From assembly GCA_036172245.1 (NCBI GenBank), contig JAYWIR010000084.1:186001-250000 (forward strand): a stretch of DNA of 64,000 bases, read 5' to 3'. The notes below the pieces were generated by a model that worked only from the letters and a program-made list of their open reading frames with translations, was not told the origin of the DNA and searched no databases. Each line of letters begins with the position of its first letter. Position 1 is the stretch's first letter. This DNA is from Raillietiella orientalis. Taxonomy: Eukaryota. The translations under genes and the position numbers were made by a program. Positions 5,740 to 59,435 of the stretch are shown piece by piece.

Positions 5740-8700
5740 GGATTCTTGTTCCGGTCATCACTGGGGGCCACTTCAGGTCATCCGTCATGCTGCCGAGCAG
5801 CTCGACCCATTTTTTTAGTCCTTGCGGAAGGACACTCTGGGTTGTGGCGTCCGCAAGCTGTCCAACTGTCCAACCGCTCATTAACTTTTCTCTGCCTGCG
5901 ATACGGCAAAAGGCTTGCACCTCAGCGTCCGGCTGCTGACGAGGACCCACCGTAGGAAGGGCAGCACCGTCGCTAGGCAGGTCGTCTCTGCCTAAGTGCT
6001 CCTGGATCGACACTCCAGGGTCTCGCGAAGAGTGCAGCGGGCGAATCGGCCGCGTCGCAGGCTATTCCACCTCTCGTGGATTCTCTGATTAACTACCGCC
6101 CACGTGACAACTTTCTTCCAGCTATTCGCTGGAGTTGACAGGGCAGCAGATCATCCACGCATTCTCCTTGGCCAGGGCTGGCATTCGTCCGAGGAGAAGA
6201 ACGCATCTTCTTATCTTTCTTCCACGACATAAAAGATGAGATGCAAGTCCTCCCGTTCCGGATACACGTCTGGCGACAAGACGGCCGGAACACACCAACG
6301 GTGCTCCACAACTTCGCTGCAATGGCCAAGCTTCGTCATCGCAGCTAAATTTCCATGAGCTCTTGAGATAGGAGGCCTAGAGCACCATCTCCACGAAGAG
6401 CGCACAAGTCCATCAAAGGTACTCCGGGCCTCCCCTTGCCCCAAAGGGCGATGCGCAGGAGGTCATTTGTCCTCTTTTTTATTTCTTTGGGGACAAGGCA
6501 AACAAAAATTAGAAGGTGAAGGATGGGGGCGGCAAAAGTTTTGCATACCGCGGCCCGTTCCGGCAAGTGGAACTTGCCCTCCAGAAATGGGCCGATCGTC
6601 AACTCCACTTTCTGGACACGGCCTGATCAGGCTACTGCGAGGCAGATGTCCCCCAGCAGAACGCCAAATTACTTCAGATATCCTTTCGTCGGAATCATCA
6701 GGCGGATCCAATCAGGCCTTCCTACCCACGACGCTCCAGCTGCCACCACCGACGATTTTGCCCTGTTAACCCGGAGCCCTGTCCCACGGCTTAGAAGATC
6801 GAAGAAATATTCGGCTGCCGTTGCCGGGGTGGGCATTGGGAGCAGGGGCATAAGATCGTCGGCATATGCCGAAACGGGAGGCGGGACAGGGCATGAGCTT
6901 GAGAAGTCAGCCAAAGTCTTCCTGTAGGCTCTCAGCACCAACTCGAAGTAGGTTCCACAGCAGGGGACCAAGGCAATCGGCCTGCAGAATCTTGCGGCTC
7001 ACCGGCACTCCGTACACGTTTTGTCCTCTGAATGAAATGTTTGTCAGCGCGGCGCGCTAGCAGGAGCGCAGGTACTCCGCTAAGGTGGGTGGGAAGCCCA
7101 TGCGATGCAGAAGCTTCAGGAAAAGCTCCTGGTCTACGCAGTCAAATGCTTTTCGCAAGCCGACTGCCACCGCAAGAACTCCCTCCCCCACTCGACCAAC
7201 CGACCCATGGCTGAAGGACTCACCAACATTCCAGCTGCGCACCAAGCCTTTTTCTTGTTGGAGCTCTAGCCATGTGGAACAGGTTCGCCTCCATGCTTCG
7301 TCCGGGAACAGAATATGTCTGTTCCGGGCTGATAAAGATGTTGGCGACCCGTCCCAGGCGCTCTGCCCACAGCTTGGCTAGCAACTTGGCGTCCGCATTC
7401 ACTATTGTGATGGGACGCCAGTTGTTCATGCTCCTAAGGTCTCCTCCCTTAGGGAGGAGCCGCTGCTTTGCCGAACGAAACGAGGCGGAAACGTCACCGT
7501 CTCGCGTATCAGCAAGGTGAGTTGATGTACCAGGGGGGTAAGCTAAGCCGCGAAGCTTTGGAAAAACTTCGCTGGCAAGCCGTCCTCCCCTAGTACCTTC
7601 CGCCTCTTGAGCCTTTTTATCGCGGTTCCAGCGGTCGTAAAAGGCTCGTTTAGTCTTTCCCTTTCCTCCTTCCCTATTCCCTAGGCTTCGTACGGGAGCA
7701 GCAGTCACGAGGCGTCCCACTCGAAAGGCGCGCCCCGGCGTATAGGGAGGAATAGAATTCTCGCAGGATGTGTCGAACCGCGGAAGGGGCCAAGTGTTCC
7801 CCGTTCTGGTCGTCCAGAAGGGTGGGCGGCCCGGACTGCCAGGCTTGGCGCTCAGCCCATGCTCGATACTCAGCCAGGCGACGGACGTTGGGGGTCCTCG
7901 CGTGACGACGAGTATATAAATACGCCCTTTCGTTGCGATTACCTTCCCCAAGCCCGGAGGGAAGGCGCCCCAGGGGAAACTCCTCACAGAACTCGCGGAC
8001 CGAACGCTTGAAAACGTCCCAATCCTCGAGATTCCGGAGGGTAACGCCTCTCGGGAATTGGCGGAGATGATCCGCCGCACCTGGGAGCCTCGTCCAATCC
8101 CCCGGTAGACGCCACGCCCTGAATGGGGGTCTTTTATTGCGTGGCCAGACATCGAACATCAGACGGAAATGGTCGGACAGCGTCGACAGGAGCCTTCCTC
8201 GTATACCGATTCGAGTACACAGGTCGTGGTCGATGAAAACGTGGTCGATGCTGTCCTCCATTTCCGGGTGTCCCTCCATCAAGTTGCGCGCTTGCATGGC
8301 GGAGCACAACTTGATCGGCACGTTCTTTGGCGTGCAGCACGCAGCTGAGAGCAGGAGGAGGTTAAAATCCCCGGTTATCAGGTGGGCCTTGAGCACTCCT
8401 GCATCTGTCAGCCAGTCGCGCTTCAGGTACTGAAAGAACTGAGCTCCTTCCGCGTACCCTTTGCTACCGCTCGGAGCATACACGTTGGTAACGATGAGAT
8501 GGATCGTGTCGGACCAGCATAGAATCATCTGTCCAACACGACCGTTGTCATCGAAGCGCACGTTCCTCACGGAGGCGTCGACGGCTGGCTTTAAAAAGAT
8601 CGCGACACCGCAGGTGTTGCGGTCGCCGCATCACGAATACAACCGACCCCCTGCGATCCTCTCGATCTCCTCGACGTCTCTTGCAGACGTGGATCTCCTG

Positions 8701-9150
8701 CAGTAGCGCCAGGTCGAATTCTCGCAGGGTGTCGGCGGTATCTCGCCTGTTGCCGTCTTCGCGCAGCCCGTTGACATTTCAGCAGGTCACGCGGAACCTT
8801 CGGCGACAGGCGAGCCCAGAGGTTATTCCTGGGAACGTGGCAGTTCGGTTCCCGCCACCTTATCGGACGGGACGGATGGAGGATGGGGTGCATCGCGCAC
8901 CGGTTCTCCCTCCTCCATGGAGGTCGATTCGGCTGCAGGCCTCATCGTGGGGAGTAGGCGGGAATCTCCTACCCGCACTGCCTGCTCCATCAGGTCCGAT
9001 TCTTCGGCTGGGCCTGTCGGAGGAAGAAAGAAGTTGTCACCGACCTGATTTCCTCCTCCATGGGGGTTTACAGCCACTCGGTCACCGGGAGTGGGAAACT
9101 CCTTCCTCCGTTCCCACGCTACCCAGGCTGCCTGTGCGTCCCCTTCCTTC
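5740..9150 (-). mobile_element. LINE copy E1: ORF1 tail plus disrupted ORF2 (EN, RT, thumb), truncated at both ends
   Basis: ORF1 stop at 8823-8825. Contains TNVYAPSG/GDFN/SDHF (7674-8570 ORF), WRPITIVNADAK, KAFDCV and SAYADD. Homology ends at LKWPPVMTGTRIL near 5740. Confidence 0.9.
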
Positions 9151-9214
9151 TTGGTTGGGATGGAAAAATGGTGACAATTTTTAAATAAACGCCCCAACTT
9201 GACCGGGTGAAAAC
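9150..9214 (+). mobile_element. Isolated ~60-nt LINE 3' terminus
   Basis: AATAAACGCCCCAACTTGACCGGGTGAAAAC matches the family's terminal motif. Confidence 0.7.
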
Positions 9215-9783
9215 GTAAGAGTAAAAATGGCGGAAGCGGTACGTGATTTTCGCTTTGACGACGAGTGGGCTAACTTGTTGTCAAGTGGTCCGATTCCATC
9301 AATCTCGTGCGACGAACATCTACGCGCCGAGTGGCTCTCGCTACCTCGAAGAACGAGTAGCTTTCTTTGGTGAGGTACAGATTCACTGGCTCAACAACTC
9401 CGCCCCCTAAGTGGCGCACCTCGTCGCGGGGGACTTCAACGTCCGCCTGCTCTCCGACGATTGGAGCCGCCCCAGGGAGCGCGCGCTGCCCATCGACATG
9501 TGCGCGTCGATGCACGCCGCCAACCTGATGGTCAGCGAACCTGGAATGGAAAGATCGCTCGATCATGTTTTTCTCGATGAAAACCTGCATTCGCGTGTGG
9601 GTAGGAGAGGAAGATTGTTGACTGGGCTTTCTGACCATCACAGGTTGGAGTTTAAGCTCCTCCCGCCAGGCAAGGTGCCGCCGCTGCAAAACTGGAGGAT
9701 GCAGGTGGACTGGCTTAGCCATTCGGAGGCCGCAGAGCATCTCCGCGAACACCTGCGAGGCTCCGCCATTCGTAAACTCGCAT
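9215..9783 (+). mobile_element. LINE endonuclease fragment E2 (same subfamily as E9)
   Basis: HLVAGDFN, SLDHVFLD and SDHHRLEF. The nucleotide sequence closely follows 23676-24250 and shares the CCCTAAGTGGCG stop. Confidence 0.9.
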
Positions 9784-9784: not shown

Positions 9785-11930
9785 TCACCAGGTTACGCCG
9801 TAGCGCTTATTCTTCCGTATAAAATGAGACTCTGTGGCTGGTAATCCAGCGTCACACTAATAAAGAAAATTAAGCCTGCCGGGTCACCGGTTTGCAGTCC
9901 GTTACGTTCCACCACGACAGCAGAGGGAAAGAAACAAAACAGATGTGTAACAGAACCAAAAAAATATATATAAAAAAACATCTGATAGGCACGGAAAAAG
10001 ATCACAGTCTGATGTGGGGCCGTGACATCCTTTCTAGGATGTCGGCAAGCTATTCTTTGATTGATAAATCCAGATGGGTCCATCCAGTCGCTGTCCTCAT
10101 AAATTCGACTGAGCATTGCACGGCACCCTTATCGCGTGGTCCTCCCGTTGCCTGGCTCTAGCCAGCGACGATCCCGCGAAAGCAGCACATGGCTGATAAC
10201 GATGCCGCTGGCCGAATGACGTTGCAAACTATGAGGGACCTAAAAGCGTCTTCTGGGGTTGCCACAGGAGATACCGATTGCCACGGCAAAACGGTTTCAA
10301 AGGGGCCGAAGAGCCACACAATCCAACAGGAGGTGAGAGAGGGACTCCCGTTCTCCACACCTCGCACAATTAGGACTCACCGCTCTCCGGGTCCAATGGT
10401 GCCGGCGGGCGTTGCAAGGGAGTCCCCAATGCAGCAACAGTAACGCCGACTCCTGCCAATTCAGGGGGAGAGTGGAGGTGTTCAGCAGCACCGGGGTCGA
10501 CTTAAGTTGTTCCGTCAGAACTTCCAGCAGCTCGCCCCAGCGCAAAAGTCCAATTGGGGTGGTAATCCGGTCCGCAGAATCGCAAAGAATACTTGTTTTC
10601 CATTCCCCGATCTTTTTCTACGTACCAGAGATTTCTGAAACCATTAACATTGCCGCCACAGTGTTGCTGTGTAGATGGTCCTCGTGGGAAAATCGCATTG
10701 CAGCGAGGGGAGTTTTCCTTGTTACACGCTCGTTTTTGGGGATTCTCTAGGAACTCTCTGAGAGCGAGACGGTCCTTGCGAGCAAACAGTTGTCTGCGAT
10801 ATTGCTCGGCGCGTTGCTCGCTGCTCCACGACAACGTGTGAATGTATTCCTAAAGCTGAGCAGTTCCGTTAACTGGGCGACAGAAGAACCATCCCTCGTT
10901 CTTCCTCATCAGATCAGCCACTCTCCGCAGCTGCAAACCGCAGTGACCGAATTGGCAGCAACGACGGAGCGCAAGGAAGGAAGATTGACATTTCCACCTT
11001 GTCGGTGGCCTGTACGACGAGGAGACGTGCAGGCTCGCACCAACTGCTGCTCCAATACTTTGCCACTAGTGCCAGGAACCGAAACTGGAGCTGGAGCTAC
11101 AGCTGCTCCAGCATCAGGAAGCCGAGACCGCCGTCATGATGCGGAGCGCTCAAGTCCACAAGCCGGACTCGGTTCCTCCCATTACCCAACAGGGCAATCC
11201 TTAGGAGGTCCTTCGTCCTCTTTTTAGTCTCTGTGGTGGAAGGACAAACAAAAAGCAGGGGGCCGAGATTACGAGCCGCGAACGCGTTCCACACCGCGGC
11301 CCGTCCGGGCAGGAAAAACCTGCGGCCTTGGAACGGGCCGATTGCCGTCTTTACCTTCTGAATGCAGCTGGACCACGCATTCTAAGGGAGATAATCCCCC
11401 ATCGGTACACCGAGGTACATGAAGTACCGTACCGTGGGGATCTCCAAACCTACCCAGCCCGCCTGCCCTGCCCACGCCGCACCTACTGGCATGACGGACC
11501 ACTTCGCTTTGTTCACCCTAAGCCCGGTTCCTCGGCTAAGCAGGTCGACGAACTCCTCGACTGCCGATACCGGGGTGGACATAGGGAGCAGCAGCAGAAG
11601 GTCGTCCGCGTATGCTGACACCGCAGGCGTACCGGGACATTCGCGCGTCAGGTGCGCAAGAGTTTCCCTGTAAGCTCTCAGTACTAACTCGATGTAGGCA
11701 GTGGAGACCAGGGGATTCAAGCTGTCTCCCTTCCGTATTCCGGGTCGTACCGGTATGCCGTGCACGGTGTGTCCACTGAAAAAGATCTGGATGAGCGCGT
11801 TTACCGCAGCGCCTTCCGGAAGAAGAAGTCTCGAGACATTTCGTTCCAGTGGAGCGCGCCCGTACAGGAAGGAGTAGAACTTTTTTATCAATCCTTTTAT
11901 CTGTGCGGGGACGGAGTGCTCCGCACTCGA
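9785..11930 (-). mobile_element. LINE copy E3: 3' end, C-terminal finger and RT domains 4-7, with an in-frame internal deletion
   Basis: HWGLPCNARR..CARCGERESLSHLLLDC, SAYADD and YLGVP. The linker LLLPEGAAV is fused directly to NALIQIFFSG near 11800. Decayed terminal motif at ~9785-9812. Confidence 0.88.
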
Positions 11931-11932
11931 TC

Positions 11933-12545
11933 CTAGAGTGTATTGCCCTCCGTGAGATGTGGGACTGACTCTCGTCGATCCTGAACATTCCGGTCGGCGA
12001 CCCCAAAAACTTATTTAGACGCCTCCTGATGCGGGACGCCTTACCAGCATCCGGGTGAGTTCCAGTACTCTCTTGCATATGCGGAATCCTAGACAAGTGG
12101 ACCGCGTCAAGGAGAGGAAGTACCAGTCGGAATGCCATTCACTGGGCAGCCATCTCCTTGGAGAAGGCCTGCCGTTGGCGTCGAATCAAAAAACATTTGC
12201 CGGCACTTGTTCGCATCCGAAACCAGATGCAGAGGCCTCCTCACGGGGTACCCTGATCCCCTTCCTTTCTCCCCCCAGCCCTAAGAACATTGCATCCCCC
12301 TTGCGTTCTGTTGTTTTTTTTGTTGTGTTTTTGTTTTTCCCGCACTTGCGCCAGTATGGGGGACTTTATCAACCTGCGGGTCGGTAAGGACAAGTGCCAT
12401 AACAACGACAAACACAAATATGATGGCCAAAAAGACAAAACATTATGAACGAAAAAGTCTTTATTGTGAAATTTTTTTCCTTTTCTTATGATTGTGAAAA
12501 CATTTTAATAATGAAAGCCCCGGATCACCCGGGTGAAAGAAACTA
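11933..12545 (+). mobile_element. LINE 3' fragment E4 with 3' UTR and terminus
   Basis: End of ORF2, then TGATCCCCTTCC, a T-rich tract and GCCCCGGATCACCCGGGTGAAA at ~12517-12538. Similar to 56010-56595. Confidence 0.85.
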
Positions 12546-14442
12546 CGACGGAAGGCGTGAAACCCACGTCTCCCCAACCCATGGAGGTGAGGAGATGCCC
12601 CACCTCGAAAGCAGCTCTCGCCACCCCGTCGAAAGCATGGAATAAAGAGGCCGCGGCGGCTCCGCCGGACGTGGCTGCAGAAGTGCAAGCCTACATTAAG
12701 GAAGCCTACAACCCTGCCCTGCTTTATAAGGTAGGGAATTTATACTCACCGCTAACTACGCGGAAATTTAAGAACGCCATCCGTAGGATAAACATTACAG
12801 AGGAGGAGATTCTGTGCTTCTCGGTACGGAGAGGAGGGCAGTTTGCGGAGCTGATCTGCAGAAATGCAGCGCTCACGCACAAACTGCTCTGCACGCCTGT
12901 TCCCTTCGAAGGGCGGAATCTTTTCCCTCACACGATGGATCACTCGATAGTAATCCCCCTAACCGGAACAACAGTGAGGATGAACGACGAAGCCATCCGC
13001 ACTGAATAACCAAGTTCGCGGAGATTTACGCGATATGGAAGAAGCTCAACGCCTTCATATATAGAGGCTCATTTAGTAAGCGACTTGCCGCTCGCGTAAC
13101 TCTCCGAGAAAACATTGAAATTCCCCACAAGCTGGAGATTAACGACGAGCTCGTTGATCTCTGGTACGTAGGGAAACAAAAATACTGCGGGCTGTGCAAC
13201 ACGTTTGGTCATCTCAAAAAGAGATGCCCGAACGCCACATGCCCAACTTGCGGCGCTAAGGGCCACACTAGCGTTGTGGGTCCCGAAAAACGCCGCTACA
13301 ACGCCGAAAACCCCGTCTACAAAAGAGTAGAAGAAGGCAGAAAACACAAAAAAGAGCGACCAACAGTCGAACTGAGAAGATGCAGAATAGAAGGAGCAGG
13401 AGCCTCAAAAAGAGACTTCTGTACCAACTGTCGGCGAGGAAGGCTGGAAATAAGTCGCCACCAAGAAAACAAAAAATTCAACTTTTAATACAGAAAAACA
13501 AAAAAAAAATCTACAAATCAGAACGCAAGCAAACCGAAAAAATCTGCGAGCGGCGCGAGAAAAATAACTCCGCGCGAGCAAATAAAAGAATGCCGCGTTA
13601 CAATCGAGCGCGTTCCATCGATCGAGCGTCGATCGGCGAACGCAACTCCCCAACCGTCGCGAACGCCGCGGAACCGCCGCAGAAACCTGCGAAAAGGACG
13701 CGAGCAGCAGCGACGACAAAAGCTTCGAGAAGGCGGCAAAGGAACTCGCGGCCACTTTAATGCAGCCGCCTAAGGCTGCAAAGAAAGCTGTGAGACGCCC
13801 GGCGGAAGCCAAAGGACCGGAAACAACCTAGTCCGAGGCGGAAGCCGAAAACCCTCCTACCGTCGCCCTCTTGAAGAGGAAGGCGGGTCAGAAGTCCCGC
13901 AACCCTATGCGCGTCGCTCTCCCTCAGGCTGAGGAGGAGGAAATGCGCTCAGGTAGCGAGAAGGCGATGTCCGCGAGTTCGCGGGATTCCTCCGTGGAAA
14001 CCGCCCGGTCCGATATTCCGATCGACCTCAGTCCGGCTGCCGACGTTCCGGTCGTTGCCGAAACGCCGTCCATGCAGGTGGTCATCAACCAGCTGCCTCC
14101 CGAACAGGAGGCGGCTACACAATCGCCACCACCATCATTAGCATGATGCGTGGAATCGCCTCTTGCCGGCAGCTGTGTATAGCCTGTTGGAATGTCAACG
14201 GGCTGCGTAGCGAAAGCAAGAGGCGTAGCGTGGCCCACATCCTGAGACCTTGCGACCTGGCACATCTTCAAGAGGTTCACGCTCTCAGGGGAGTGGACGT
14301 CGAGGACGCTATGACCCTCTCCATTTCGGAGAGGGTCATAGCGGAAAGGCTACATTGGCGTTACGGTGGAGACCACTGGCGCGGAGTGGCCTTCCTGCTG
14401 GAGCCACATATCGCAAATGCGGTGCGCAGTGTACAGTTCCAC
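12546..14442 (+). mobile_element. LINE copy E5: frameshifted ORF1 plus start of the ORF2 endonuclease
   Basis: AAEVQAYIKEAYNPALLYKVG and the knuckles CGLCNTFGHLKKRC/CPTCGAKGH. TGATG stop-start at 14144-14148, then IACWNVNGL..LQEVH. Confidence 0.9.
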
Positions 14443-14838
14443 GTTATCACCCAGTCAAGCCGGGGCGATTATTGAAAAACTTGCAGAATTTGCGGTACAA
14501 GGCCCCGCTGCGGCCAATAGTTCTATGGAGCTGTCTGGTGGTCAGTGCACAGACCGACATAACACTCCACGTCAACGGATGGGGTCAGGGAAAAAACAAG
14601 AATAAAAAAATCAAAAGTAGAAACACTGGTCATTGGGAGGGCCGAGAAGGGATCACTGTCCGTTTCGTGGAGCTTCCATCCTTTGCAGGATGCCTACGAG
14701 GTCCTGGTACAGATTTCCATGTTGGGGCCATCGGGTAGGTTGCTATTCGCAGAAAGCGAGCTGCATACTCCATGGCACCCTTCCGTTAACATCCTCTGCT
14801 TTGACGGATCCACTCCAAGCTGCCACGATACCGCATTT
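14443..14838 (-). mobile_element. LINE 3'-end fragment E6
   Basis: The reverse complement reads GIVAAWS..RWP..GILQRM, TGATCCCTTC, a T-rich UTR and the terminus AATAATCGCCCCGGCTTGACTGGGTGA. Confidence 0.85.
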
Positions 14839-14854
14839 GTGACTGGGTGAAAAC

Positions 14855-27150: not shown

Positions 27151-27180
27151 CCAAAGACCCAACGGATGAATGAGGAGAAT

Positions 27181-39531: not shown

Positions 39532-39629
39532 NNNNNNNNNNNNNNNNNNNNNNNNNNNNNNNNNNNNNNNNNNNNNNNNNNNNNNNNNNNNNNNNNNNNN
39601 NNNNNNNNNNNNNNNNNNNNNNNNNNNNN
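39532..39629. other. Assembly gap (98 N)
   Basis: Run of N. Confidence 0.99.
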
Positions 39630-45135: not shown

Positions 45136-46330
45136 TGCGTGGCTGGAGCAATGGTCCAGCCACGCACGCCCTGCAGTTGCAACAAAGCGAAGACCAGGGA
45201 GGTCAAGAGAATCCTGGATTCTCCTCTGACCAGGGAGGGGACGCCCTTCATGGAAGAGCCGCGCCCGGTGCCCTTGCGGTCGCAGTCGATCTGCGTAAAG
45301 CGTTCGATTGCGTCGACGAGGAACTCCTTCTGGAGCTCTTGGAACGCTTGGGATTCCCAGCTGTGTTCCGGGCTTACCTGCGCTCCTGCTGGCGCTTCGC
45401 TCTAATAAACATCTCTTTTAGCGGCCGGCACGTGTACGGCGTGCCGGTTCGGCGTGGAATGAGGCAGGGTGACAGTCTGAGCCCCATGCTCTTCAGCATC
45501 TATATCTCGGCAGCTAGCTGACGCTGCGACGCCGAGTGTTCCGCCCAACGGAATTCGACGCTGGGGCGAGCTACTCGGACTATCTCCGGAGGAGATGAAG
45601 TGGCCCTTAGCGTCCTGGAACAGTGGATCCCTCCCCTTGAAATGGCAGGATGTGGCGTTGCTTTTGGTACTCTGGGGATTACCATTCAAAGCACGTCTGC
45701 ACCACACCACCCGGGGGGCTGTGGATCCCAATTGTGACCGGTGTGGGGAAAAAGAAACATTCCTCCACCTTCTCCTTGAGTGTAGCGCCCTCCGTCCTTT
45801 GTGGGATCGTCTCGCGGCGATCCTGGACCTGCGCGGATGCGGTCCAAAGGACGTTTTCAGGCGCCTCTTCTGTAGTGACGCCTTGTCCCCGCTCGCTAGT
45901 GTAGCAGTCCTCTGCTGCATCAGAGGAATAGTGGCGGCTTGGAACGCCACCAGAAGAAGGCGTCAGCCAACCGGCAACGCCTTACACTGGAGTCGCCTTT
46001 TCGCGCGCAGTGTCTGCAAGTGGCGCCACTTGGGCGCTGAAAGGACTCAGCTTGTGCGGATCCTGAATAGGATCTACAGGACCTTTCCACGCGCACCGTG
46101 ATCCCTTCCCCGTCCTCTCACCCCTACAACATTTGTTCTCCCCCACATTTGAGCTTTTTGTTTCCTTTTTTTTTTCTTTATTTCCCATCCCCGCTTATCT
46201 GAAGCACCTCTCCGGCATGGAGCCGGTAACCAGCAAGCTGTTTTGCAGTGGTGAACCTTCGAGTTCGCCACGCGACATTTCATGTATTTTTATTTCAAAG
46301 AAATAAATGCCCCGGCACATTTGGGTGTGA
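45136..46330 (+). mobile_element. Internally deleted LINE 3' derivative E17
   Basis: VDLRKAFDCV..RQGDSLSPMLFSIY is joined near 45505 to QLADAATP..KWP..CDRCGEKETFLHLLLEC. Stop at 46099-46101. Terminus AATAAATGCCCCGGCACATTTGGGTG. Confidence 0.88.
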
Positions 46331-46332
46331 AT

Positions 46333-49300: not shown

Positions 49301-51490
49301 ACGACAGCCAGGCAACCGCATCTGCGGCTGACAGGGCTAGGCGTCGCTGCATTCGGCCTGGGGAAGCGCCGGGTGCCTTGGCGGTCGCGGTCGATCTCCG
49401 CAAGGCGTTCGATTGCGTAAATCAGGATCTCCTGCTGGAGCTCCTGGAACGCCTCGGTCTCCCGGTGCACCTCGTGGCCTATTTGCGTGCTTGCTGGCGC
49501 CACGCGCTCATTTCCATCTCTTTTAGCGGCTGCCACGTGTACGGCGTGCCGGTGCGGCGGGGCATCAGGCAGGGCGACAGCTTAAGCCTGTTGCTCTTCA
49601 GCATCTTCTTTGAGTTGGTGCTGAGGGCGTAGAGGCTGACGCTGGCCAACCTGCCGAGCTCTTGTCCAGGAACGCCGTCCGTGGCGACCTATGCTGACGA
49701 CCTGCTCCTCCTCTTACCCATGACCACCCCGGCGTCCAGTCTCGAGGATTTCTTCGAGCTGATTCGCCGGAGAGCGGGCATGAGCGTAAACCGGATCAAG
49801 AGCGTGGTCGTACCTATTGGTGCGGCGTGGGAGGGGCATGCCGACTGGATCCGCCTGGCGATCCCGACCGCTTCCTCCATGCAATATCTGGGCGTTCCGC
49901 TGGGGAACATCAGCCCAGTGTAACTGTGGTCGGACTGCCTTCGGAAGGCTTCGAATGCCCTGAGCCCGTTCCACCATAGCAAGTTCGTCCTGCCGGAGCG
50001 GGCCACGATATGGAAAACCTTCGTTGCCCCCCTCTTGCGCCCCTTGCTTTTTGTTTTCCCGCTCCCCTGCTCTGCCAAGCTCCAGGCGCACAGCCTTTTG
50101 AGGAACGCTCTGTGGGGACCTGCGAGGTCCAGGATGCTCCTCAAAGACTTGGCGGCTCCGCGTCGGGATGCTGGTTTAGGCATCCTGACGCTGGAGAGAA
50201 TGGAGCTGCAGGTGCAGCTTCGGATGTTGGCCCTGTGCGCCAACCTTTGGTCCACTCCGTGGTGCGCTCCCGCGCGCCTGCTTCTGCGGCGCTGCACAGG
50301 CAGCAATGGACTTCTGTCGCTGCGGCCGCACACGGAGCGCGCCACGAGAAGCTTCGGTTTTCCCTTGAAACCGCTGTATCGGCTCCTGGAAGCCCAGGTA
50401 TGGATCTCCTGCCGCCCAACGAACTTTGAAGCCTGTCGGCAGGAACCGTTGCATGGCTGGGCAAAGCACCAGGATGTTTCCCTCCTGGAACTCCGTTGCG
50501 ATCACCTCTCCCCGTACTGCACGGTGGATGAGGTGTGCAACAGCCAGGAGAAGTGGACCCGCCTGGCCGTCACCCCCCTTGAAGACGCACTATCAGCCCT
50601 CAGGGCAAGAGATGACAGTTGCGAACCGGCGAGATGGGAGGTCGCCTGCATTATCGCAGGAACAACGCGACCTATTGGCGGCTGGAAGACTTGCGAGCTG
50701 GCGGACGCCGCCACACCTCGCCACGTTCCGAAGGGACTCCTTCGGTGGAGCGAACACTTGAGTGTGCCCCTTGAAGAACTTGTGGTTCCTCCCTCGTGTC
50801 TGAACACTTCTGTGTTCCCCCTTTCGTGGAAGCAGCACGTGATTATGCTGGTGCATTGGGGTTTTCACTCCAACCAGCGCACGAACCTTGTTTCCGGGGG
50901 AGTCGTCTCCCCAAACTGTAAGCGGTGCGGGGAAGTGGAAACGCTCCCGCACCTGCTCCTGGACTGCGGTGCCCTTCTAGGACTCTGGCGTAGGCTGGTC
51001 TCAACTCTTCTGCACCAGGGGGACACCGCGAGGGACTTGATGCGCCGCTTCTTCACGCCAGGCGGCCTGTCATTGGGTGCTGTCGTTGCAACCGTGTGTT
51101 GCACCCGCGCCATCGACAAGGCCCACCGAGAGTTGGAGAAGCTGGCCATCCTTCGTCAGCTCACCGGATTAGCCAGCGCAAACATGTCGTCCGCTGCCCA
51201 GTGGGCCCATCTGCCACAGGGCGTAAGGAGAGAGATTGCCGGCATCCATCGCCGGTTTTGAAAGGAAGGAACGGACTTACCAAAGACCCCTGTCCCCTGC
51301 CCTCCATATTTTTCTTTTATTTTTTTATATAGTAGTGTGTTTGTGGTTCCTTCCCTCCCGTTCCGGACTTTCGGCATACCGACCTGAATGTCGGGGATCC
51401 CACCATCTTCGTCTCTTGTTTTCCCCTTTGTCCGGGAACCCTGTTCCCGGATAGTTTATAATAAACGCCCCGGCGCACCCGGGTGACAAA
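46333..51490 (+). mobile_element. LINE copy E18, 5'-truncated within ORF1 and otherwise the best-preserved copy
   Basis: ORF1 is open to 47692 (CGNCGKESHRPRKC, CRYCKLLGHSINEC). ORF2 is full length, and the 3' UTR and terminus are complete. Confidence 0.95.
47698..51261 (+). pseudogene. ORF2: APE endonuclease, reverse transcriptase and C-terminal CCHC finger (~1187 codons, two nonsense codons)
   Basis: The ORFs at 47683, 49681 and 50035 share one frame and are interrupted only by TAG (49630-49632) and TAA (49921-49923). Contains TYADD and CKRCGEVETLPHLLLDC. Confidence 0.93.
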
Positions 51491-53540
51491 CAACCGCCCT
51501 CCCGCGATCGTTTCGATCTCCTGAGCGTCTTTTGCTGTGATCACGTGGATCTCCTGCAAAAGCACCAGGTCGAAATCTCGCAAGGTGGCGGCTGTATCTC
51601 GTCTGTCTTCGTTGTCGCGCAGCCCGTTGACATTCCAACTGGCCGCGCGGATCTGACGGCGACAGGCGACTCCAGGTGTTATTCCTGGGAACCTGGCGGT
51701 GGTGCTCCCGCCACCTTTTGGGGCGGGTCGCTGGACGGGGTTGGCGTCTTGCCCACCAACTCCCCATCCTTCTTACGTGCCGACGTCTCCGGCTGCCCGT
51801 GCGAAGGGGGTGTTGCTCGTACCTGTTGGCCCACATCCATTGGTGCGGGTGGTTCAGGTTCGGCGGTTTCAGGGGGCATTGCTGACCCCTGGTTACCCTC
51901 CTCCATTGGAGTCGCCTCCTCGTCGGCTTTCGCACGTGGGTGATGCCCGACTTGGGCTCCCAGGCTGCCATCCACTGGTTCCTCCTCCATTGGATCCCCC
52001 TCGCGCGGAGGCGGAATGCACCTTCGGGGTTTCTGGGATTTTCGCCCCGCTTTCCTTGGTGGTGCTTCCGCAGAGGATGCACTTCCCGCCTTTCGGTCCT
52101 ACTCACCTGCGGGGGTTATTTTAGCTGCTGCCGGCCTACGCAATCCCTTTCGCGAAGGGTTCTCGCGTTCGGCAAGCGTTGCCGCAAGCTTCTCGGCGGC
52201 CTTCACGAATGCTGCGTCCTTGGTTTCGGCGATTTTGTCGTCCGGCTGACCCTCTTTGCAAGCAAGGGGTGGGTTTTCGCGCGCATTCGTCGCGGCGGGG
52301 AAATCGATCGAAGCCGTATCGCCTGCGGTGGTGTCGGCGGGAACGTCAATGCGCTCCAGCGTAACCGTGCATTCTCGGAGAGTTTTTACGCGCGACACGG
52401 ATTGAGCTTTCGTTCCGGCCGCCACCTTCTCTCCTTTCTTCGGGACATGCTTGTCCTTTTTCTCTTTTTCGGCTTTGACTAGCTGCCAGCCCTGTTCTCC
52501 CTCTGCGGTTTCGGGAAGATTTTTCTCCGATGCCGCGGTTGGAGCTTGGGTTATTGGCAGCTTTTCTCGGCCAGTTTCACGGTTTTCCAATTTTTCTTTC
52601 CCCGCGCGTTTCCCTTGCGCCTTTTTGGCGGCCGAGGAAATTGGGGTGGGGCGTTTAGGGCACACGCGACGGACGTGTCCCTTCTCCCCGCACAAGTAGC
52701 ATACGATGTTTGGGCACATCTTTCGGATGTGTCCGACCGCATCGCAGTAGCCGCAATACCGTGGCTTGCCCGCATACCAGAGGTCTACCGGTTCTCCCGC
52801 GACCTCAAGTTTGTCGGGAGCTTCGCTTCGTTTTTTGGGGTTACGCGTGCCTCGGCGAGGCCCCCGAAGTGGCTTCCGTAGCCCTTAAAGATTGTGGGTT
52901 CCGGCCACAGCGCGTGTACGTCTCCGTACTTACTTAATTGTTCTTTGAAGGCAGTGTGCGTCATGCGCTTAGATATTCCTGTCAAGTGTACCACTACCGA
53001 GTGGTCCATTGACACCGGGAAGATCTTACGGCCGTCCATGATCAGCGGGGTATTTATAAGGCGATCGGCTAGGCTGATGCTCTTGCACACCACTCAACCC
53101 GCTGCTCCCCGCTGAGCACGCACAGACCTTCCAGATCTTCCTCACGGACATTAGCATTTTGAAACGCTCTGCTGAAAGAGCGCGCCGTGTTTCCCTCAAA
53201 CAAAGGTCCTACCTTGTATACAAGCGATAGCTTGTATTGAGAGGCCCTATAGGCGGCTTCCTCGGCCATGGCCTTTGCATCGGGGGCGGCGACCATTTCA
53301 CTCCAAGTCTTCGCCGGCTGCAAAGATGTTCCAGGGACTATTGCCCCCATAGCTGTAGGTCTTGTGGGAGGACTTGCCTCCCCCACAACTACATCCATCG
53401 CGGTTTCCTCTGGCACGGCTGCCATCGGACACCGACAACCCACACTTTTCACCTGACTACACTAAAAACTCCGGTTGCTTCCCAGACAAGCGCTATCGGA
53501 GCGACCACAAAACACGTCCACCCACACCGGCTTTCGGCGA
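51491..53540 (-). mobile_element. LINE copy E19: 5' UTR, frameshifted ORF1 and start of EN (E7 subfamily)
   Basis: 5' motif at 53509-53519, ATG at 53425, CYLCGEKGHVRRVC, ORF1 stop at 51679-51681, then SWNVNGL..LLQEIH. Confidence 0.9.
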
Positions 53541-54540
53541 TGCCACCCGGATACGCCGGGACGTTTATTAAAAACATTTCAACAGTCAATACAGAACGTG
53601 TTACAAGGCCCCACTGACGGCCACGCAATACCGGAACTGCCGGGACACCGGGATGCAGCCCGGTGTGGCTGTCCTCGGCAGTGGAGGGGGATGGGGCAGA
53701 AAACAAAAATAAAATATAAGAGAAAAACAAACCACAAAAAAAGTTTGGAGGGCCGGGAAGGGATCACAGAAAACTGCTGGGAGGGCCCATCCTTTGCAGG
53801 ATGCCTTCTAGTTCCATTTTCAGAATTCCTAGATGGGGCCATCGGTAGCTCTCTGCAGGAAGCGAGAAGCATACTCGATGAGGTCCCTCACGATGCAGTC
53901 TTCATCTTCGGCATCACTCCAGGCCGCCACGATACCACGAATGCAGCAAAGTGCTGCCAGGGCTGCGGCTGGACTGAGGACGTCCCGCACGAAGACAAGA
54001 CTGTACACGTCTCTGGGGTTGCTACCATCGGGTATCCCAAGGGCCGTTCTGAGAAGATCCCAAAGAATCCGCACAGCAGGGCAATCAACTAAGAGGTGGG
54101 GGAGCGACTCTTGCTCTTCACAACTGGCACAGGCAGGATTTACTCTTCTTCGCGTTTAGTGGAAGCGGTGCGCGTTGCAGGGTAGACCCCTATGCAGCCA
54201 CAGAAGCGCCAATTCTTGCCACTTCAGGGGAAGAATCCTGGATCCAAGTAAAACCGGTGCCATTTCAGGTTATTCAATCGAATGCCGAGCAGCTCGCCCC
54301 ATCTTCTTAATCCACGCGGCTGGAGACTAGGGGTCATAGCGTCTGTCAACTCTCCCATGGCACAGACGCTCGTCATCTTCTCTCTGCCTGTGATACGGCA
54401 GCAGACTTGCCACATCGGCTTTCGTCTTTCGTGGAGAGCCCTTTGGAAGAAGGGCATCGCCTTAGCAAGGGGTGTCCCTTCTGCCCACGTGCAACTCGGT
54501 GGAAATTCAAGAATTTCACGCAGAGTTCGGCGGGCGTAAG
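53541..54540 (-). mobile_element. LINE 3' fragment E20 with complete 3' UTR (E11 subfamily)
   Basis: Closely parallels 28320-29170. Terminus AATAAACGTCCCGGCGTATCCGGGTGG. Confidence 0.9.
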
Positions 54541-54569
54541 AGCTGTTCATAGGCATTCTTTGGTTCCAG

Positions 54570-57020
54570 ACAGAGCAAGCCATCCTTAAGTTTTTGTGTG
54601 TGTGGAATTGCAGCCGTTGGAAGGCAGAATTGCCTGAAGTCGCCGCAACACTTTCGACGGGAAGCGTGTGACCCACGTCTCTCCAACCCATAATGGTGGG
54701 GTCATGCCCCAACAAAAAATCGGGCCCCACCGCCTCGTGAGGGCTTGGAACAAGGTGGCTGTTTCGGGTCCACCCGACGTGGTCGCAGAAGTTGAAGCCT
54801 AAATGAAGGAGGGCTACAAAGCTGCCCTCCTTTATAAGGTAGGAAATCTCCAATCTCCGCTAACTACGCGGAAATTTGGAAACGACATCCGTAGGATGGG
54901 AATAACAGACAAGAATAACAGATGGGAATAACATTCTGCGCTTCCCGGTACACAGCATCAGGCAGTTCGCGGAGCTCATCTGCAGAAATGGGGCGCTCAC
55001 GCACAAACTCCTCTGCACTCCCGTAACTTCTGAAGGACGGAATTTAATTCCACACACGGTGGATCACTCGATAGAAGTCCACCTAACAGGTACCACTGCA
55101 CGAATGAGGCAGGAAGCCATCCGCACAGAAATCGACAAATTCGCGGAGATATACGCGATGTGGAAGGAGCCCAACTTTTGTTCTTATCGAGATAGGGTGC
55201 GGGAGTCCCCTTCACCTTATAGTTGACTGCCTTGCTCTCCGGATTCTGTGGGATCGTCTCGAAACGGCTTTCGCAGCACTCACTCTCGGGCCCCTGCTTT
55301 TAGTGTGCCCAACTTCTTCCCACACGAATCCTCTCCGACAGGGCAACCGCCTGCTATGGATTGACCTCAATCCTAATAGCCAACGACCGTAATCTGAACC
55401 ATTGTGGAATTCAGCTACGGGACTTTATTGCTCTGTTGAGGGACAGACCGTGGATCTCCTGCAACCCGTGTACTGGACTACCTGGTTTTAGGATTCCGTT
55501 TCTGCATGGGCAAAAATCAACGGCTCCAGCGATGTAGACTTCTCCTTCCTCCGTCGAGGCAGGTTTGCTGGCCACTCACTGCAGATCATTTCCAACCTAC
55601 GGAACCTGCTGTGGGCTAACTTTACCCCCTTGTCTCCGTGATGCCCTTCCTCAGAGAAACAAGGGATAGACAAGAGAAGCCATCGTGGGAAAAGTCCTGC
55701 CTCCTCGGAGGATGGAAAAAACCTATAAAGGCGTGGAGGTACCGGGAACTAGCGCACGCTGCAACACGGAGTGTCCCGCTTAATGGAATTGTGCACTCAA
55801 TCGAGCTGCTCGACATGCCTTCGGAGGAAGTGAAGTGGCCCCCAGCATCTTGGGACAACGGCACCCTCCTTCTGCAGCGGCAGGAGACGGCGTAGCTTCT
55901 GCTCCATTGGGGACTTGTTTGCAGAGCACGCCTCGTACACTCTACCTTAATAAGTTCGAATGCCCACTGTGCTCTGTAGGGAAAGGGATACCTTCCCCTG
56001 CCTAATTATAGTATGTGTGGTCCTCCGCTAGATGTGGGACCGACTTTCGTCGATTCCAAACATTCCCGTGGGCAATCGGAAAAACATTTTTCGGTGCCTA
56101 CTGATGCGGGACGCCATGCCGTCCGCAGCGTGTGTCCCAGTACTCTGTTGCATGTGCGAAATTTCGGATAAGTGGACTGCAACCAGGGGAATACGCTGAA
56201 GTCGGAATGCCATTCACTGGCAACCATCTCTTCGGAGAAGGCTTCCCGTTGGCGCCGACTAAGAAAACTTCTGCCGACACTTGTTCGCATCCAAAATCGA
56301 ATACAGAGTTCTCTCCAGGGCGTACCGCGTTCCCTCCCCTTCTCTTCTCCCCCAGAAAACATTGTACCACCAAGCTATTTTTCTCGTTTTGATTTGTTTT
56401 CTGTTTTTACGGCCCCTGGTCCCGTGAAAAGTACTTTACCGGTCTGCGGCTCAATAAGGACAAGTGCCCCGAGACAGAGAACATATGTTCTGACTGAAAA
56501 ATAAAAGTGATCATGACACAAGAAGACTTTATTATAAAAAATTTCTCCTTGTAAATATTTTAATAATAAAAGTCCCGGCTTACCCGGGAAAAAAACCTGG
56601 TTGCAGTTGAATCCATGGACAAGGCTGCAGGGTGGTCTCGCCTTCGTTACGTACTCAAAGCTGACATCGCCGTCATCCTGCGCCCATTTATAGTCTCTGA
56701 AAAAGGGCGTACTTCGGTGCCATCTGTGAGGTCTCATCCACTCCCTATCGCAATCCCGTTCTTTCTTTTGAGTTCACAATGCTGTTACCTATATTCTTGT
56801 GCCTTGCTGAGCAATCTCAAGGACCGTTTTTCAAGCTTCCCCGATTCATTGTTTTCCTTTTGCTTTTGTTTGTTTGTTTTCTCCGACCCACACGTATCTG
56901 AAAAATTCTCTTGATTCCTCCGGAGTCGTCGGTAGGCGCTAGATTCCCAACTGGTTTACTTGATATAATTTTTTCCTTCTCATTACATAAAGTAAACGCC
57001 CCGCCGTGAGCGGGTGAGAA
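54570..57020 (+). mobile_element. Mosaic of decayed plus-strand LINE pieces (ORF1 start 54570-55190; C-terminal pieces; 3' termini near 56595 and 57020)
   Basis: Resembles 27228-27830, then HLIVDCLAL and EEVKWPPASW, with two terminal motifs. Confidence 0.8.
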
Positions 57021-58230
57021 ATCTCATGGACTTCGGTTGCGGTGATCACGTGGATCTTCTGCACGAATGCAAGTTCTAATTTTTGCAGGCTTTGGGCAGT
57101 ATCTCGTCTGTTGGCATCGTTGTGCAGCCTGTTAACGTTCCAGGAGGCCACACGGATCCCATAGCGATAGGTGTGTTCACTTGTTATGCCTGGGAACATG
57201 GCGGAGCGGCTATCGCCACCTGTTGGAGAGGGACGCTAGACTGGGTGGCGTTTGGCGTTCCTGCTTTCCCTCCTCCATACGCGGGACGCAGTTGGCACCT
57301 TCTTTGCGGCAGCTTTCTCCGCACGCTGTTTTTCAGGTTGTGTGGCGCGCTTTTTCTCGTGCTTTGCGGACGCGATGCGAAGTATTGCGTTTGCGGATTC
57401 CCTACGGTTGTGGTCATTGCGCTGCATGGTTTGCACTGAACGCTCAGGTGCACCTTCTTGAGGTGGCGCGATGGATTGCAGAATTTACTGTATTTAGGCT
57501 TTTTGACATGCGAAAGTTCGACATTTCCACCAGCGACCGCTATTTTGTGGAAAACTTGCTGCTTTCCCGGGCAGAGATTCGCGCGCATGCAAGGTCCCGT
57601 TGTAGTTTCGCATGCTTCACAAACGAAGAAGGCTAGAAGTACTGCGCATGAACCGCGCCGCGCTGTTTGAATACGGCGCGAAGTTCTGCCCTCTCTATAC
57701 GCGCTGTGACACCTAATAGCGGACCACAATGCTGTGGTGCACCGTAATAGGAAGAAGACTGCGCTTTCCCATGGTAACGGGGGTTTTCAGCATCCGCTGA
57801 GCTAAATCTGTCTCTTTGCAGTATACTTCCACCAATTTTCACCCTTCGCATGCTCATCGCGCCCAGTTGTTCCTCCGGCACGTTGATAGCAAGCAAAGGC
57901 TTCGAAAAGGTGTAAGCACGCTGCGGAAAAAACAAGTTGCCCATCTTGTAGAGCAACATGTGGTTGAGCTGCCATTCACTTACGCAATGAATTTTGACGC
58001 GACTGCAGGTATAGTCGCCGCACCACGTCTCTCGAAGCTCGGGATGCCGCGGGGACCGATTCGGTAGGCGGCTGTTGCCACCTCCATCGCCTCTGACGAC
58101 CACGTCGCAGCCTGGCACTCACTGATGGTCCCGTCAGGAGTTCCTGCCTCATCCACAGTCCAACTGAACTCAACGCACTGAAGAAAAGGATCACTGCACC
58201 GCGACGGACCAAGAAAACACGTCTATTCTG
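57021..58230 (-). mobile_element. Decayed LINE 5' part (deleted ORF1, start of EN; E16-like)
   Basis: 5' motif at 58214-58224, LLYKMGNLF, KPKYSKFCNPSRHLKK and IRVASWNVN. Confidence 0.8.
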
Positions 58231-58231
58231 C

Positions 58232-59435
58232 GAAACCAAAGCGTTCGACTGCATCAAAGAGGAGTACCTCCTGAAGCATTCTGGACTCTCGAGATTCGAG
58301 ACGGTCTTCCTGTCTTCTCTGCGCTCTAGTTGGCAATTCGCGATAGTAAACATTTTTTTTAGCGGCACGCGCGTGTACGGTGTGCGGGTTCCTCGTGGCA
58401 AAGTGATACACCGAGTGAGCAGGAGGAATAAGTAGGATGCCCTTCACGTCACCCGCTTCCTGCAGATATCGTCGAGGTAGCTCTGCCTAGAAAGGGACGT
58501 GACGGAGCTCTCCGACATCCTGCAACTAAAGCAAAAGCCTCACCCACTACGAGATGTGATCCCTTTCCGTCCCACAAGCTAATCTCGTTTTGGTCAACTT
58601 TTATTTTTATTATTTCCTTTTTTATCTGATTTTGTTTTATCCATCTTCTTCTTCTTAGGCTCGATAAGCCTCGCTGGCTCTCACTTATTTCCACTGTGAT
58701 AATCAGGATCATCTAGCCATCTGGCTTCACTGATAACTCTAAGAGATATAATTGCCTAGGTGCACCCAAGTGCGAAACCATACTCAGGATAAAGAGACCT
58801 TAAATAATTTTATTGCTTTACATCTATCTTCTGCATGAACAGCAGAACTTTCTACAACAGAATTTCGGGGAGTTGCGTCCCCGAACTGTGTTAAATGCGG
58901 AGCGGTGGAATCGCTTCCGCATTTGCTGTTTGAGTGCGGTGCCCTCCACGAGCTGTGGCAGCGGCTGTCTTCAGCGCTCCTGCACCCTGGACACACCGCA
59001 CTGGATTGGATGCGCCGTTTCTACACGCGTGCCGGACTTTCTCTTGGAGCGGTCGTCGCAATCATCTGCTGCGTCCGCGCCATTGTCAGGGCCCGCCACG
59101 TATTGCAGATGCGAGCAGTCCCAACATCGGTCCCCGACACCGCAGCCTGCAACCTGCAAATGGCTGCCGGGTGGCCACATCTTGGAGCAGAAGTGAGGAC
59201 GGAGATCGGCGGCATTCACCGCCGGTTCTGAGAATAGGAACGGTTAGACTGTATACCCCTGTCCCCGCCCTCCCAACCGATTTATTTATTTATTGTCCCA
59301 CCCCCTCCCGTTCCGAACTCTCAGTGTGCCCGGACTGCGTTCCGGGAAATCTACTCCCCATCTTCTGTTCCCCTTGCCTGGGAACACAGTTCCCAGTTGA
59401 TATTGTAATAAACGTGCCGGCGCAACCGGGTAATA
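58232..59435 (+). mobile_element. Decayed RT piece and two LINE 3' ends (near 58775 and 59435)
   Basis: KAFDCI..FSGTRVYGV, TGATCCCTTTCC and NCVKCGAVESLPHLLFEC..GIHRRF*. Terminus AATAAACGTGCCGGCGCAACCGGGT. Confidence 0.82.

Follow-up and report, generated by a model that had tools for sequence, protein, structure and literature searches.

A stretch of 64,000 nucleotides from Raillietiella orientalis (assembly GCA_036172245.1, contig JAYWIR010000084.1, positions 186,001 to 250,000; the window, numbered here from its first letter) contains an island of 53.7 kb, at 5740-59440, made of retrotransposons that lack long terminal repeats (non-LTR). Its sequences belong to a single, well-supported clade with at least about ten lineages, or, by the usual 80% rule, at least about ten families, and about 24 distinct pieces from these lineages lie end to end in both orientations. 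This accumulation is neither due to chance nor to mere local copying. With confidence and doubt in about equal measure, we read the island as a nest that grew by repeated independent insertions, under a regional or copy-directed preference, and that deletion and recombination later remodelled. The data do not support strict self-homing to a specific sequence.

The island is present in the assembly. Self-comparison (63 high-scoring segment pairs, E<1e-20) shows self-similar DNA from 5760 to 59441, and a 5909-position nhmmer DNA profile made from eight island copies gives 34 matches at E<=1e-3, all but one of them within 5740-59440. These 33 matches cover 51,178 of the island's 53,701 bases (95.3%); the plus strand accounts for 33.8 kb of this and the minus strand for 17.4 kb. 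The other 2,523 bases comprise 599 nt of a mitochondrial insert present twice and 98 N, the remainder being mostly element termini. The GC content is 0.51-0.63 inside the island versus 0.38-0.41 outside, and the CpG observed/expected ratio is about 1 versus 0.7-0.8. An earlier note, made from the letters alone, had described a 54-kb island of 25-30 pieces in both orientations: GC, self-comparison and profile cover agree on its extent, the strand totals on its orientations, and the 35 segments of the profile come down to 29 units once colinear ones are joined, though four or five of these are copies of a duplicated block. What does not stand is the note's "one family", which is replaced by many lineages of one clade.

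The edges of the island are as abrupt as the note had it, but they differ: on the right, the outermost copy keeps its whole 3' terminus and shows a target-site duplication, while the left edge is a minus-strand copy cut internally, at profile position 5213 of 5909. Copies do adjoin copies with almost no spacer, except that a mitochondrial fragment and some 85-245 nt of AT-rich DNA, the latter preceding the last copy (piece 33), lie inside the island. A permissive rerun of the profile on both flanks added nothing significant, so that the flanks are free of copies apart from one weak remnant. This is the 34th match, at 59449-59678 on the minus strand, which resembles the element's 5' region (profile 108-334, E 3e-7 to 7e-7) in DNA with a GC content of 49%. 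This could be what is left of an older copy, and the flanks could hold further, unrecognisable remnants. No genes were detected in the flanks, where 116 open reading frames (ORFs) of at least 45 aa gave merely two sub-threshold chance matches to Pfam. There are no satellites or telomere repeats among the 13 Tandem Repeats Finder rows for the 64-kb window, and no Rfam families or tRNAs were found in it.

Other transposon classes are absent both from 129 ORFs of at least 120 aa searched against Pfam (127 from the island and two from the flanks, excluding the duplicate block) and from the 4.7% of island DNA left unassigned. Ten of the 129 were matched, all by Exo_endo_phos, RVT_1, zf-RVT or zf-CCHC; a sub-threshold zf-C2H2_10 match in the same set falls on a CCHC knuckle. 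Pfam and the 95.3% profile cover thus uphold the claim that no other transposable element lies inside. They also bear on the alternative that the note itself had raised, a trap of the PIWI-interacting RNA (piRNA) cluster type: such clusters usually mix many transposon families, and only one clade is found here.

Within this clade, divergence is deep. Most pieces share only 62-75% of their DNA in the self-comparison, and ORF2 amino-acid identity between lineages is 25-65%. Nonsynonymous differences per site are fewer than synonymous ones (pN<pS) in 93 of 93 pairs of ORF2 pieces with at least 60 shared codons. The synonymous divergence (dS) is saturated in 14 of these 93 pairs and mostly exceeds 1 among the others; for the 79 pairs whose dS is finite, the ratio of nonsynonymous to synonymous divergence (dN/dS) lies at 0.12-0.64, and for ORF1 at 0.16-0.58. 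These values mean that the lineages diverged as active elements under purifying selection, and not by decay after local copying. With at least 13 3' termini, at least about ten lineages and no other transposon type, the island calls for an insertion preference or for strongly biased retention.

The clade appears to be private and previously unsampled, as judged from protein comparisons. In a reverse transcriptase (RT) tree of 71 rows, six island copies and the metagenome protein P0256 group together with a Shimodaira-Hasegawa-like approximate likelihood ratio (SH-aLRT) support of 100, on a stem of 0.97 changes per site. This tree comes from a quick search under LG+G4 and its rows are unnamed or automatically named database proteins, without curated L1, Tx1 or Zepp references; the named neighbours are from ticks, fishes and Xenopus. 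A HMMER scan of 1.84 billion representatives produced 25,955 matches, and among the best 150 of these, three short metagenome proteins are 64-77% identical and all others at most 37%. Seven metagenome loci for the RT are each only 25-41% identical. A protein of the olive ridley turtle, P0257 (E 1e-112), was considered as a close relative and rejected, for it is a gene model running across four repeats of an RT that is 32-38% identical.

The element itself is about 5.9 kb long, with a short 5' untranslated region (UTR), ORF1, ORF2 and a 3' UTR, in that order. Full-length copies open with the common motif GGACGTGTTTT or a near variant, and seven full 5' starts are found in the island. ORF1 has two RRM-like domains in an AlphaFold model (predicted local distance difference test, pLDDT, 71.5), followed by two CCHC knuckles, seen both as two CX2CX4HX4C motifs in the ORF1 alignment and as zf-CCHC matches in Pfam. 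The model matches 43 PDB chains at E<=1e-3, with hnRNP A1/A2 and other tandem-RRM proteins at the top, and the protein would be what is called a type I ORF1. A 42-nt unit is repeated twice (90% match) at 39773-39855, close to the start of ORF1 in the copy designated C. ORF2 encodes an APE endonuclease, an RT and a zinc-binding tail by Pfam: a 660-aa ORF at 47650-49632 carries Exo_endo_phos (E 4.8e-16, residues 31-238) and RVT_1 (E 6.5e-10), the same domains recur in other copies, and zf-RVT reaches 28.5 bits against a cut-off of 27.5 at 45481-46098, staying under the cut-off in two further copies. The solved structure closest to ORF2 is human L1 ORF2p (E 2e-37), with R2 far behind (1e-12). These features would make it an APE-type non-LTR retrotransposon of the broad L1/Tx1 kind, in the L1 superclade.

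At the 3' terminus, 11 copies carry AATAAA and then a 5-bp hairpin, which is conserved; they close with a short tail rich in A, mostly with AAC as its last letters and without poly(A). Examples are 51437-51493, 59384-59440 and 17561-17618. Simple motif scans with two mismatches do no better than shuffles (18 hits versus 17.9 expected for the 5' start, 28 versus 24.6 for the 3' hairpin), and a covariance model took their place for the 3' terminus. Built on the 57-nt 3' terminus, this model finds exactly those 11 sites, all inside the island, and the hairpin shows one compensatory and three wobble changes across lineages. The B-type and 14-type copies have variant 3' ends, which brings the distinct 3' termini to at least 13 in total. 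A conserved 3' stem-loop marks "stringent" long interspersed nuclear elements (LINEs), including some within the L1 clade such as L1-1_CR (PMC3472496). By analogy, the hairpin suggests that the present element may depend on its own 3' end in the same way.

The following course of events would account for the island. A private GC-rich clade of APE-type non-LTR elements would insert again and again at the locus, with new copies landing preferentially in or beside older ones. The preference would be for the region, or for the chromatin or RNA of the copies, rather than for one nucleotide site, and copies would persist because landing in the nest is harmless. Reshaping would then occur in four ways: the 3' parts of interrupted copies would be lost, break repair would create joints, one of them capturing mitochondrial DNA, exchange between copies would lead to mosaic identity, and a 10.6-kb tandem duplication, very recent or artefactual, would be added. 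The base composition of non-LTR elements is often far from that of their host, and GC-rich Tx1 lineages have been noted (PMC7140322).

The joints between pieces bear on several of these steps. The 16 5' truncation points are scattered along the element, as reverse transcription that stops early would leave them. Of the larger pieces, nine end in a cut on the 3' side, and five of these cuts lie in or just past the APE-coding region, at ORF2 codons ~79, ~86, 108, 285 and 312, not at one nucleotide; at each of the five, the neighbour is an oppositely oriented copy that abuts the cut with its intact 3' terminus. Among 14 internal units, none is flanked by direct repeats of more than chance length. 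Piece 33 (58866-59440), on the other hand, retains its 3' terminus and lies between 13-nt direct repeats (58854-58866 and 59436-59448) of a length equalled in only 1 of 2000 random window pairs, and it is surrounded by DNA of 38% GC that continues into the flank. The clade is thus capable of ordinary endonuclease-type insertion. The target of piece 33 begins with ACAAC, the same five letters as the element tail, and this single case suggests that the nicked target may pair with the RNA tail during priming. For the internal joints, we infer that they were remade, or else formed differently from that of piece 33.

One such different route would be growth primed by DNA breaks, in which copies are added at breaks or free ends without the endonuclease. 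Parallels are the healing of telomeres by Zepp or HeT-A and endonuclease-independent L1 insertion. It could coexist with the preferred reading, although we consider it unlikely. Intact 3' termini do meet arbitrary internal positions of older copies, in either orientation, and at these joints the remainder of the older copy is lost and no target-site duplication is seen. On its left side the island stops at a break within a copy, short 3'-terminus tags stand before full 5' starts, and one joint holds mitochondrial DNA, nuclear insertions of which are a usual by-product of end joining. However, the orientation of the copies is mixed and telomere repeats are lacking, endonuclease-type insertion works in this clade as piece 33 shows, and later deletions could yield the same joints.

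Several observations weigh against a nest built by preferential insertion. The clustering of the cuts in the APE region, five of nine where the region makes up 12% of the element length (binomial p ~0.002), concerns an interval picked post hoc. By profile coordinates, no interrupted copy in the whole island has its other half beyond the insert, so that insertion into a copy is inferred and not shown. The 13 3' junctions examined have no target motif in common. Piece 33, the only clean insertion, sits in non-element DNA, which opposes strict self-targeting, though it fits regional accumulation. The assembly at this block is not fully trustworthy, given an N gap, kilobases that are 100% identical beside patches of 80-90%, and differences between the two mitochondrial inserts. 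Lastly, only 10 kb of flank is in view, and if the clade were equally common elsewhere, the block may be one dense patch among many. Of the earlier proposal that the family homes to itself or to this locus, what remains is the non-chance accumulation; a defined self-target does not, in view of the missing motif, split halves and internal duplications.

Some of these same observations would suit a passive graveyard, where near-random insertions survive in a gene-poor stretch of low recombination, where deletion, unequal exchange and gene conversion rearrange them, without any targeting. The 3' junctions have no common motif, piece 33 is cleanly inserted into AT-rich DNA of an ordinary kind, the rearranged joints lack target-site duplications, identity is mosaic, and no genes were detected in the flanks. 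Yet a passive trap should also gather other transposon classes, and none is present in the 129 ORFs or the 4.7% of unassigned DNA. The edges are sharp and not graded, and ten or more lineages of one clade alone are hard to obtain by retention, unless the clade is by far the host's main active transposon. We regard the graveyard as possible, though on the unlikely side, and continue to prefer repeated insertion with a regional or copy-directed preference.

About one-fifth of the island is a duplicate. The segments 17711-28922 and 28341-39531 form a tandem duplication with a period of about 10,611 bases and 94.1% identity over 11,227 columns, and therefore four or five of the 29 units are copies of a block rather than separate insertions. 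The second copy and the start of a third halt exactly at the N run 39532-39629. The identity of the pair is mosaic: it rises from 62-72% through 87-90% to 97-100% over 17.7-19.7 kb, reaches 100% over 20.5-24.7 kb and 26.6-28.9 kb, and falls to 80-90% over 24.8-26.5 kb. This last patch is a 1.9-kb portion of the RT in copies B and B' (24734-26600 versus 35346-37211), with 218 substitutions, one indel and a transition/transversion ratio (ts/tv) of 1.1, as if it had been taken from another subfamily. Two sources of the mosaicism are compatible with this pattern: true exchange between copies that followed a recent duplication, and flaws in assembly and polishing. The 10.6-kb duplication is likewise either very recent or artefactual.

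The duplicated block includes the mitochondrial insert (NUMT, for nuclear mitochondrial DNA), a 298-nt COX1 fragment on the minus strand at one joint inside the island (20247-20544; duplicate 30857-31157). Between the two NUMT copies there are four insertions of 1 nt, a single deletion and two multi-base changes that are clustered, in surroundings where whole kilobases are 99-100% identical; mitochondrial reads used in polishing could be the cause, as could read errors left uncorrected, or local conversion. Copy 2 has an open frame of 113 codons under the ascidian mitochondrial code. In an alignment with 104 COX1 proteins, TGA falls twice at a position that is Trp in 104 of 104, ATA falls at Met in 98 and in 80 of 104, and AGA stands opposite a nearly invariant Gly (100 of 103) and opposite Gly or Ser at other sites. 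Translated with code 13, the ascidian one, the fragment reaches its best Pfam COX1 score, 33.5 bits, compared with 32.2 for code 5, 27.7 for code 9 and 26.4 for code 4. The COX1 fragment and its readings in mitochondrial codes are in keeping with the invertebrate host that the NUMT had been said to indicate, and the best named COX1 matches, from mites and other arthropods at 60-70% identity, are not diagnostic of the host. Taken by themselves, the codon readings had pointed to a tunicate, probably an ascidian, with odds a little better than even. In the flanks, 14 long ORFs in mitochondrial code have no COX or NAD match.

These irregularities raise the question of whether the block is an assembly product, stitched from dispersed or haplotypic copies, with the duplication being a repeat loop walked twice. 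The duplicated block does stop exactly at the 98-N gap, identity passes from 100% to 80-90% and back practically without indels (218 substitutions and one indel in 1.87 kb), and the NUMT copies differ by 1-nt indels in short runs, one of them reading as an unbroken COX1 frame, such as polishing with reads from mitochondria might leave. Nevertheless, contigs of about 34 kb and 24 kb each link unique AT-rich flank to the nest without a gap. Most pieces, being 62-75% identical, should be easy to assemble uniquely, and each joint differs from the others. The duplicated fifth might be inflated by an artefact, but a nest of many lineages could not be produced by one, which makes an assembly origin for the whole improbable.

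Traces at the start of several copies are relevant to how the elements have lived. The joint between the 3' end of copy B and the 5' start of piece 13 (27188-27232) recurs at 21236-21280, 84% identical over 45 nt, where it precedes a heavily deleted copy. Short tags resembling 3' termini, on the same strand, stand before the 5' starts of pieces 24 (53524-53541) and 8 (14838-14855). Copies C and 30, although deeply diverged (ORF1 dS ~2), have the same upstream neighbour, an antisense RT fragment that begins at a KAFDC motif (39630-39675; 58214-58260); 23 of 33 bases of this upstream flank are identical, the C side being cut by the N gap after 31 nt. Transcription or template jumps from a neighbour, insertion at the same site, and flanks carried along are all possible sources of these tags and repeated neighbours. 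All three readings amount to life among copies, and the progenitors probably sat among copies as well. At pieces 10 and 11, twin priming was considered and discarded, as piece 11 opens with a 5' start and a neighbour's 3' tag.

Head-to-tail joints and pieces of a neighbour's 3' end before full 5' starts are reminiscent of the telomeric HeT-A/TART arrays of Drosophila, and HeT-A transcription was reportedly found by Danilevskaya et al. in 1997 to start in the upstream neighbour. The island nonetheless differs from HeT-A/TART arrays by its mixed orientation (33.8 kb plus, 17.4 kb minus), by the unique DNA on both sides, by the absence of a chromosome end and by belonging to another clade. With the Tx1 group it has in common an APE, an RT and a zinc-binding tail, as well as an RRM/CCHC ORF1. 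Kojima and Fujiwara are said to have described how members of this group choose repetitive targets. A further source likewise presents the Tx1 group as known for such targets (PMC4640811). There is no single target here: the 13 3' junctions differ, and the lone target-site duplication is in anonymous AT-rich DNA.

The closest parallels for the arrangement come from green algae, in which self-clustering L1-clade elements have been described that mark centromeres. Zepp, an element of Chlorella and Coccomyxa, targets existing Zepp copies and in Coccomyxa forms clusters of 1.5-42.3 kb, one per chromosome, that are GC-richer than the genome (61% versus 53%), and its relative ZeppL-1_cRei marks the centromeres of Chlamydomonas (PMC3446292, PMC8226300). 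L1-1_CR, which is ZeppL, is a stringent-type L1 dependent on its own 3' end (PMC3472496). The island resembles these systems in its size of tens of kb, in consisting of one L1-clade group alone, in its local GC peak and in its copies on copies, and its conserved 3' hairpin may be set beside the stringent-type 3' end of L1-1_CR. This likeness is one of description, and the host is a green alga there and an invertebrate here. The comparison with Zepp that the earlier note had drawn therefore holds in several respects, including the local GC peak. The differences are that many deeply diverged lineages are found here versus one or two families in Zepp, that both orientations, seven full 5' starts and many 5' parts contrast with arrays of 3' ends, and that there is no poly(A) tail here.

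Among invertebrates, Drosophila has centromere cores that consist of islands of complex DNA, in which the non-LTR element G2/Jockey-3 is enriched (PMC6516634). The present island is likewise non-LTR-enriched complex DNA in an invertebrate. However, the Drosophila islands contain several retroelement families with large flanking satellite arrays, versus one clade and no satellite in 64 kb here, and their clade is Jockey versus one that is L1/Tx1-like. By analogy with both systems, the island might be a centromere-associated cluster, with one such nest per chromosome as in Zepp/ZeppL and with centromeric chromatin. The single L1-clade group of tens of kb with its local GC peak (PMC3446292, PMC8226300) would agree with this, as would the precedent of non-LTR-rich centromere islands in an invertebrate (PMC6516634). 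Older copies are at the edges of the island and the youngest large copy is inside. Against it, the window has no flanking satellites and nothing that bears on centromere function, and the seven full 5' starts and many 5' parts depart from published Zepp arrays, which are mostly 3' ends. A centromeric role is thus doubtful, and repeated insertion into a preferred region remains our reading of the island. A yet further step would be a Zepp-like invertebrate system, with the clade confined to its own nests, diversifying there and dependent on its neighbours, and with the nests forming centromere cores, one per chromosome. If transcription or template jumps started in the 3' end of the upstream copy, this would explain the 3' tags and the head-to-tail joint seen twice, but the full scenario must be considered a long shot.

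The copies are not equally decayed. In copy R, the youngest large one, ORF2 (47650-51261) has 1203 codons with two stops (TAG at 49630 and TAA at 49921) and no frameshift. Copies B and C have 6.7 ORF2 breaks per 1000 codons, and pieces 1-3, at the left edge, have 14-18. Piece 1 alone has 13 stops and six frame switches (19 breaks) in 1028 ORF2 codons, and at the other end the remnant at 58237-58780 is AT-enriched. Such uneven breakage implies that copies arrived over a span of time and that the oldest pieces lie close to the edges. Nonsense codons far exceed frameshifts island-wide, and close pairs differ by one to four indels per 70-220 substitutions. A variant nuclear code was rejected as the reason for the in-frame stops, since the 56 stops (27 TAG, 15 TAA and 14 TGA) stand opposite many residues. 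Hypermutation resembling repeat-induced point mutation (RIP), or due to a deaminase, was rejected too, with a ts/tv of 0.87-1.69 in seven close pairs and a CpG observed/expected ratio of about 1 in the most broken copy. In Ciona, transposons are unmethylated and gene bodies methylated, a pattern that would fit a ratio of about 1 in the oldest copies.

From left to right, the island begins with piece 1 (5740-9119, minus strand, profile 1784-5213), the most decayed copy, 3'-truncated exactly at the island's left edge. It is followed on the plus strand by a 95-nt 3'-terminal fragment with the canonical 3' hairpin (piece 1b, 9120-9214) and by piece 2 (9215-9780, profile 2313-2892), an APE fragment 86% identical to copy B. 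Pieces 3+4 (9786-11926, minus) represent one copy, 5'-truncated and internally deleted (profile 3115-3241 and 3893-5900), whose 3' end at 9786 is intact. Piece 5 (11903-12543, plus) is a 3' part, from profile 5323 to the end, with a canonical 3' terminus at 12487-12543. Piece 6 (12544-14442, plus, profile ~140-2357) is a 5' part with ORF1 and the ORF2 start, and its cut end, in the APE region, meets the 3' end of piece 7 (14443-14834, minus), a 3'-terminal fragment. Piece 8, or copy A (14874-17564, plus), opens with a full 5' start; both RRM-like domains and both CCHC knuckles are present in its ORF1, and its ORF2 extends to codon ~312. Against it lies the canonical 3' end of piece 9 (17565-20246, minus), a 3' part spanning profile 3215-5904.

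NUMT copy 1, a COX1 fragment with frameshifts (20247-20544, minus), separates piece 9 from piece 10 (20545-21235, minus, profile 2524-3222), which is 84% identical to part of piece 1. Piece 11 (21236-21401, plus) is made of a B-like 3'-terminus tag, a 30-nt 5' start and then profile 2421-2551. Copy B (21406-27213, plus) is full-length, its ORF2 having eight in-frame stops and no frameshift, and piece 13 (27214-28210, plus), with a full 5' start and part of ORF1 (profile to 1074), is joined to it head-to-tail. Piece 14 (28211-30856, minus), a 3' part from profile 3215 to the end, is a mosaic relative of piece 9 and is 87-88% identical to piece 25. The second copy of the duplicated block (30857-39531) is mostly 99-100% identical to 20247-28922, with the 80-90% patch at 35346-37211. 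It contains NUMT copy 2 (30857-31157), 31158-31847 (minus), 31889-32013 (plus), the full-length copy B' (32018-37824, plus), 37860-38821 (plus) and 38929-39531 (minus). The 98 N of the scaffold gap at its end (39532-39629) are the only N run in the window.

Beyond the gap, an antisense RT fragment (39630-39660) lies just upstream of copy C (39661-45137, plus), which has a full 5' start, ORF1 and an ORF2 with seven stops and one frameshift, and is without its last ~80 nt. Pieces 21+22 (45172-46328, plus) form a 5'-truncated copy with an internal deletion (profile 3666-3999, then 5091 to the end), in which zf-RVT is above the Pfam cut-off. Copy R (46329-51493, plus) is 5'-truncated in ORF1 and runs from profile 679 to the end. 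Against its 3' end, piece 24 (51494-53523, minus, profile 2-2270), a 5' part, is cut at ORF2 codon ~79, and an 18-nt tag connects it head-to-tail with piece 25 (53542-54548, minus, profile 4897-5902), a 3' part. Piece 26 (54549-55178, plus) is a 5' part reaching profile 650. Pieces 27 and 28 (55195-56598, plus) are 3' parts (profile 5328-5409, and 4659 to the end) with a canonical 3' terminus at 56542-56598. The diverged 3'-UTR fragment that follows, piece x (56599-57024, plus), has a canonical 3' terminus at 56968-57024 and adjoins piece 29. Pieces 29+30 (56989-58226, minus, profile 4-979 and 1966-2271) are a 5' part with eight stops in ORF1, cut within about 22 nt of the position at which piece 24 is cut. 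Next to the 5' start of piece 30, and antisense to it, lies an old remnant, pieces 31+32 (58237-58780, plus), with an RT fragment from the KAFDC motif and then a 3' UTR. Piece 33 (plus), 5'-truncated and running from profile 5294 to the end, closes the island between its direct repeats in AT-rich DNA.

What the island means for the biology of the host depends on where else the clade is found. If it is dispersed, the block is an ordinary transposon-rich patch. Self-clustering L1-clade elements appear to be well documented in green algae alone, in which they mark centromeres. If the present clade is confined to nests genome-wide, it would be a second, independent L1-type clade specialised to live on itself, and its sequences would provide a marker for centromere or heterochromatin cores in an invertebrate. 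It would then also offer a natural system for studying how a non-LTR element without a fixed target sequence comes to prefer a region.

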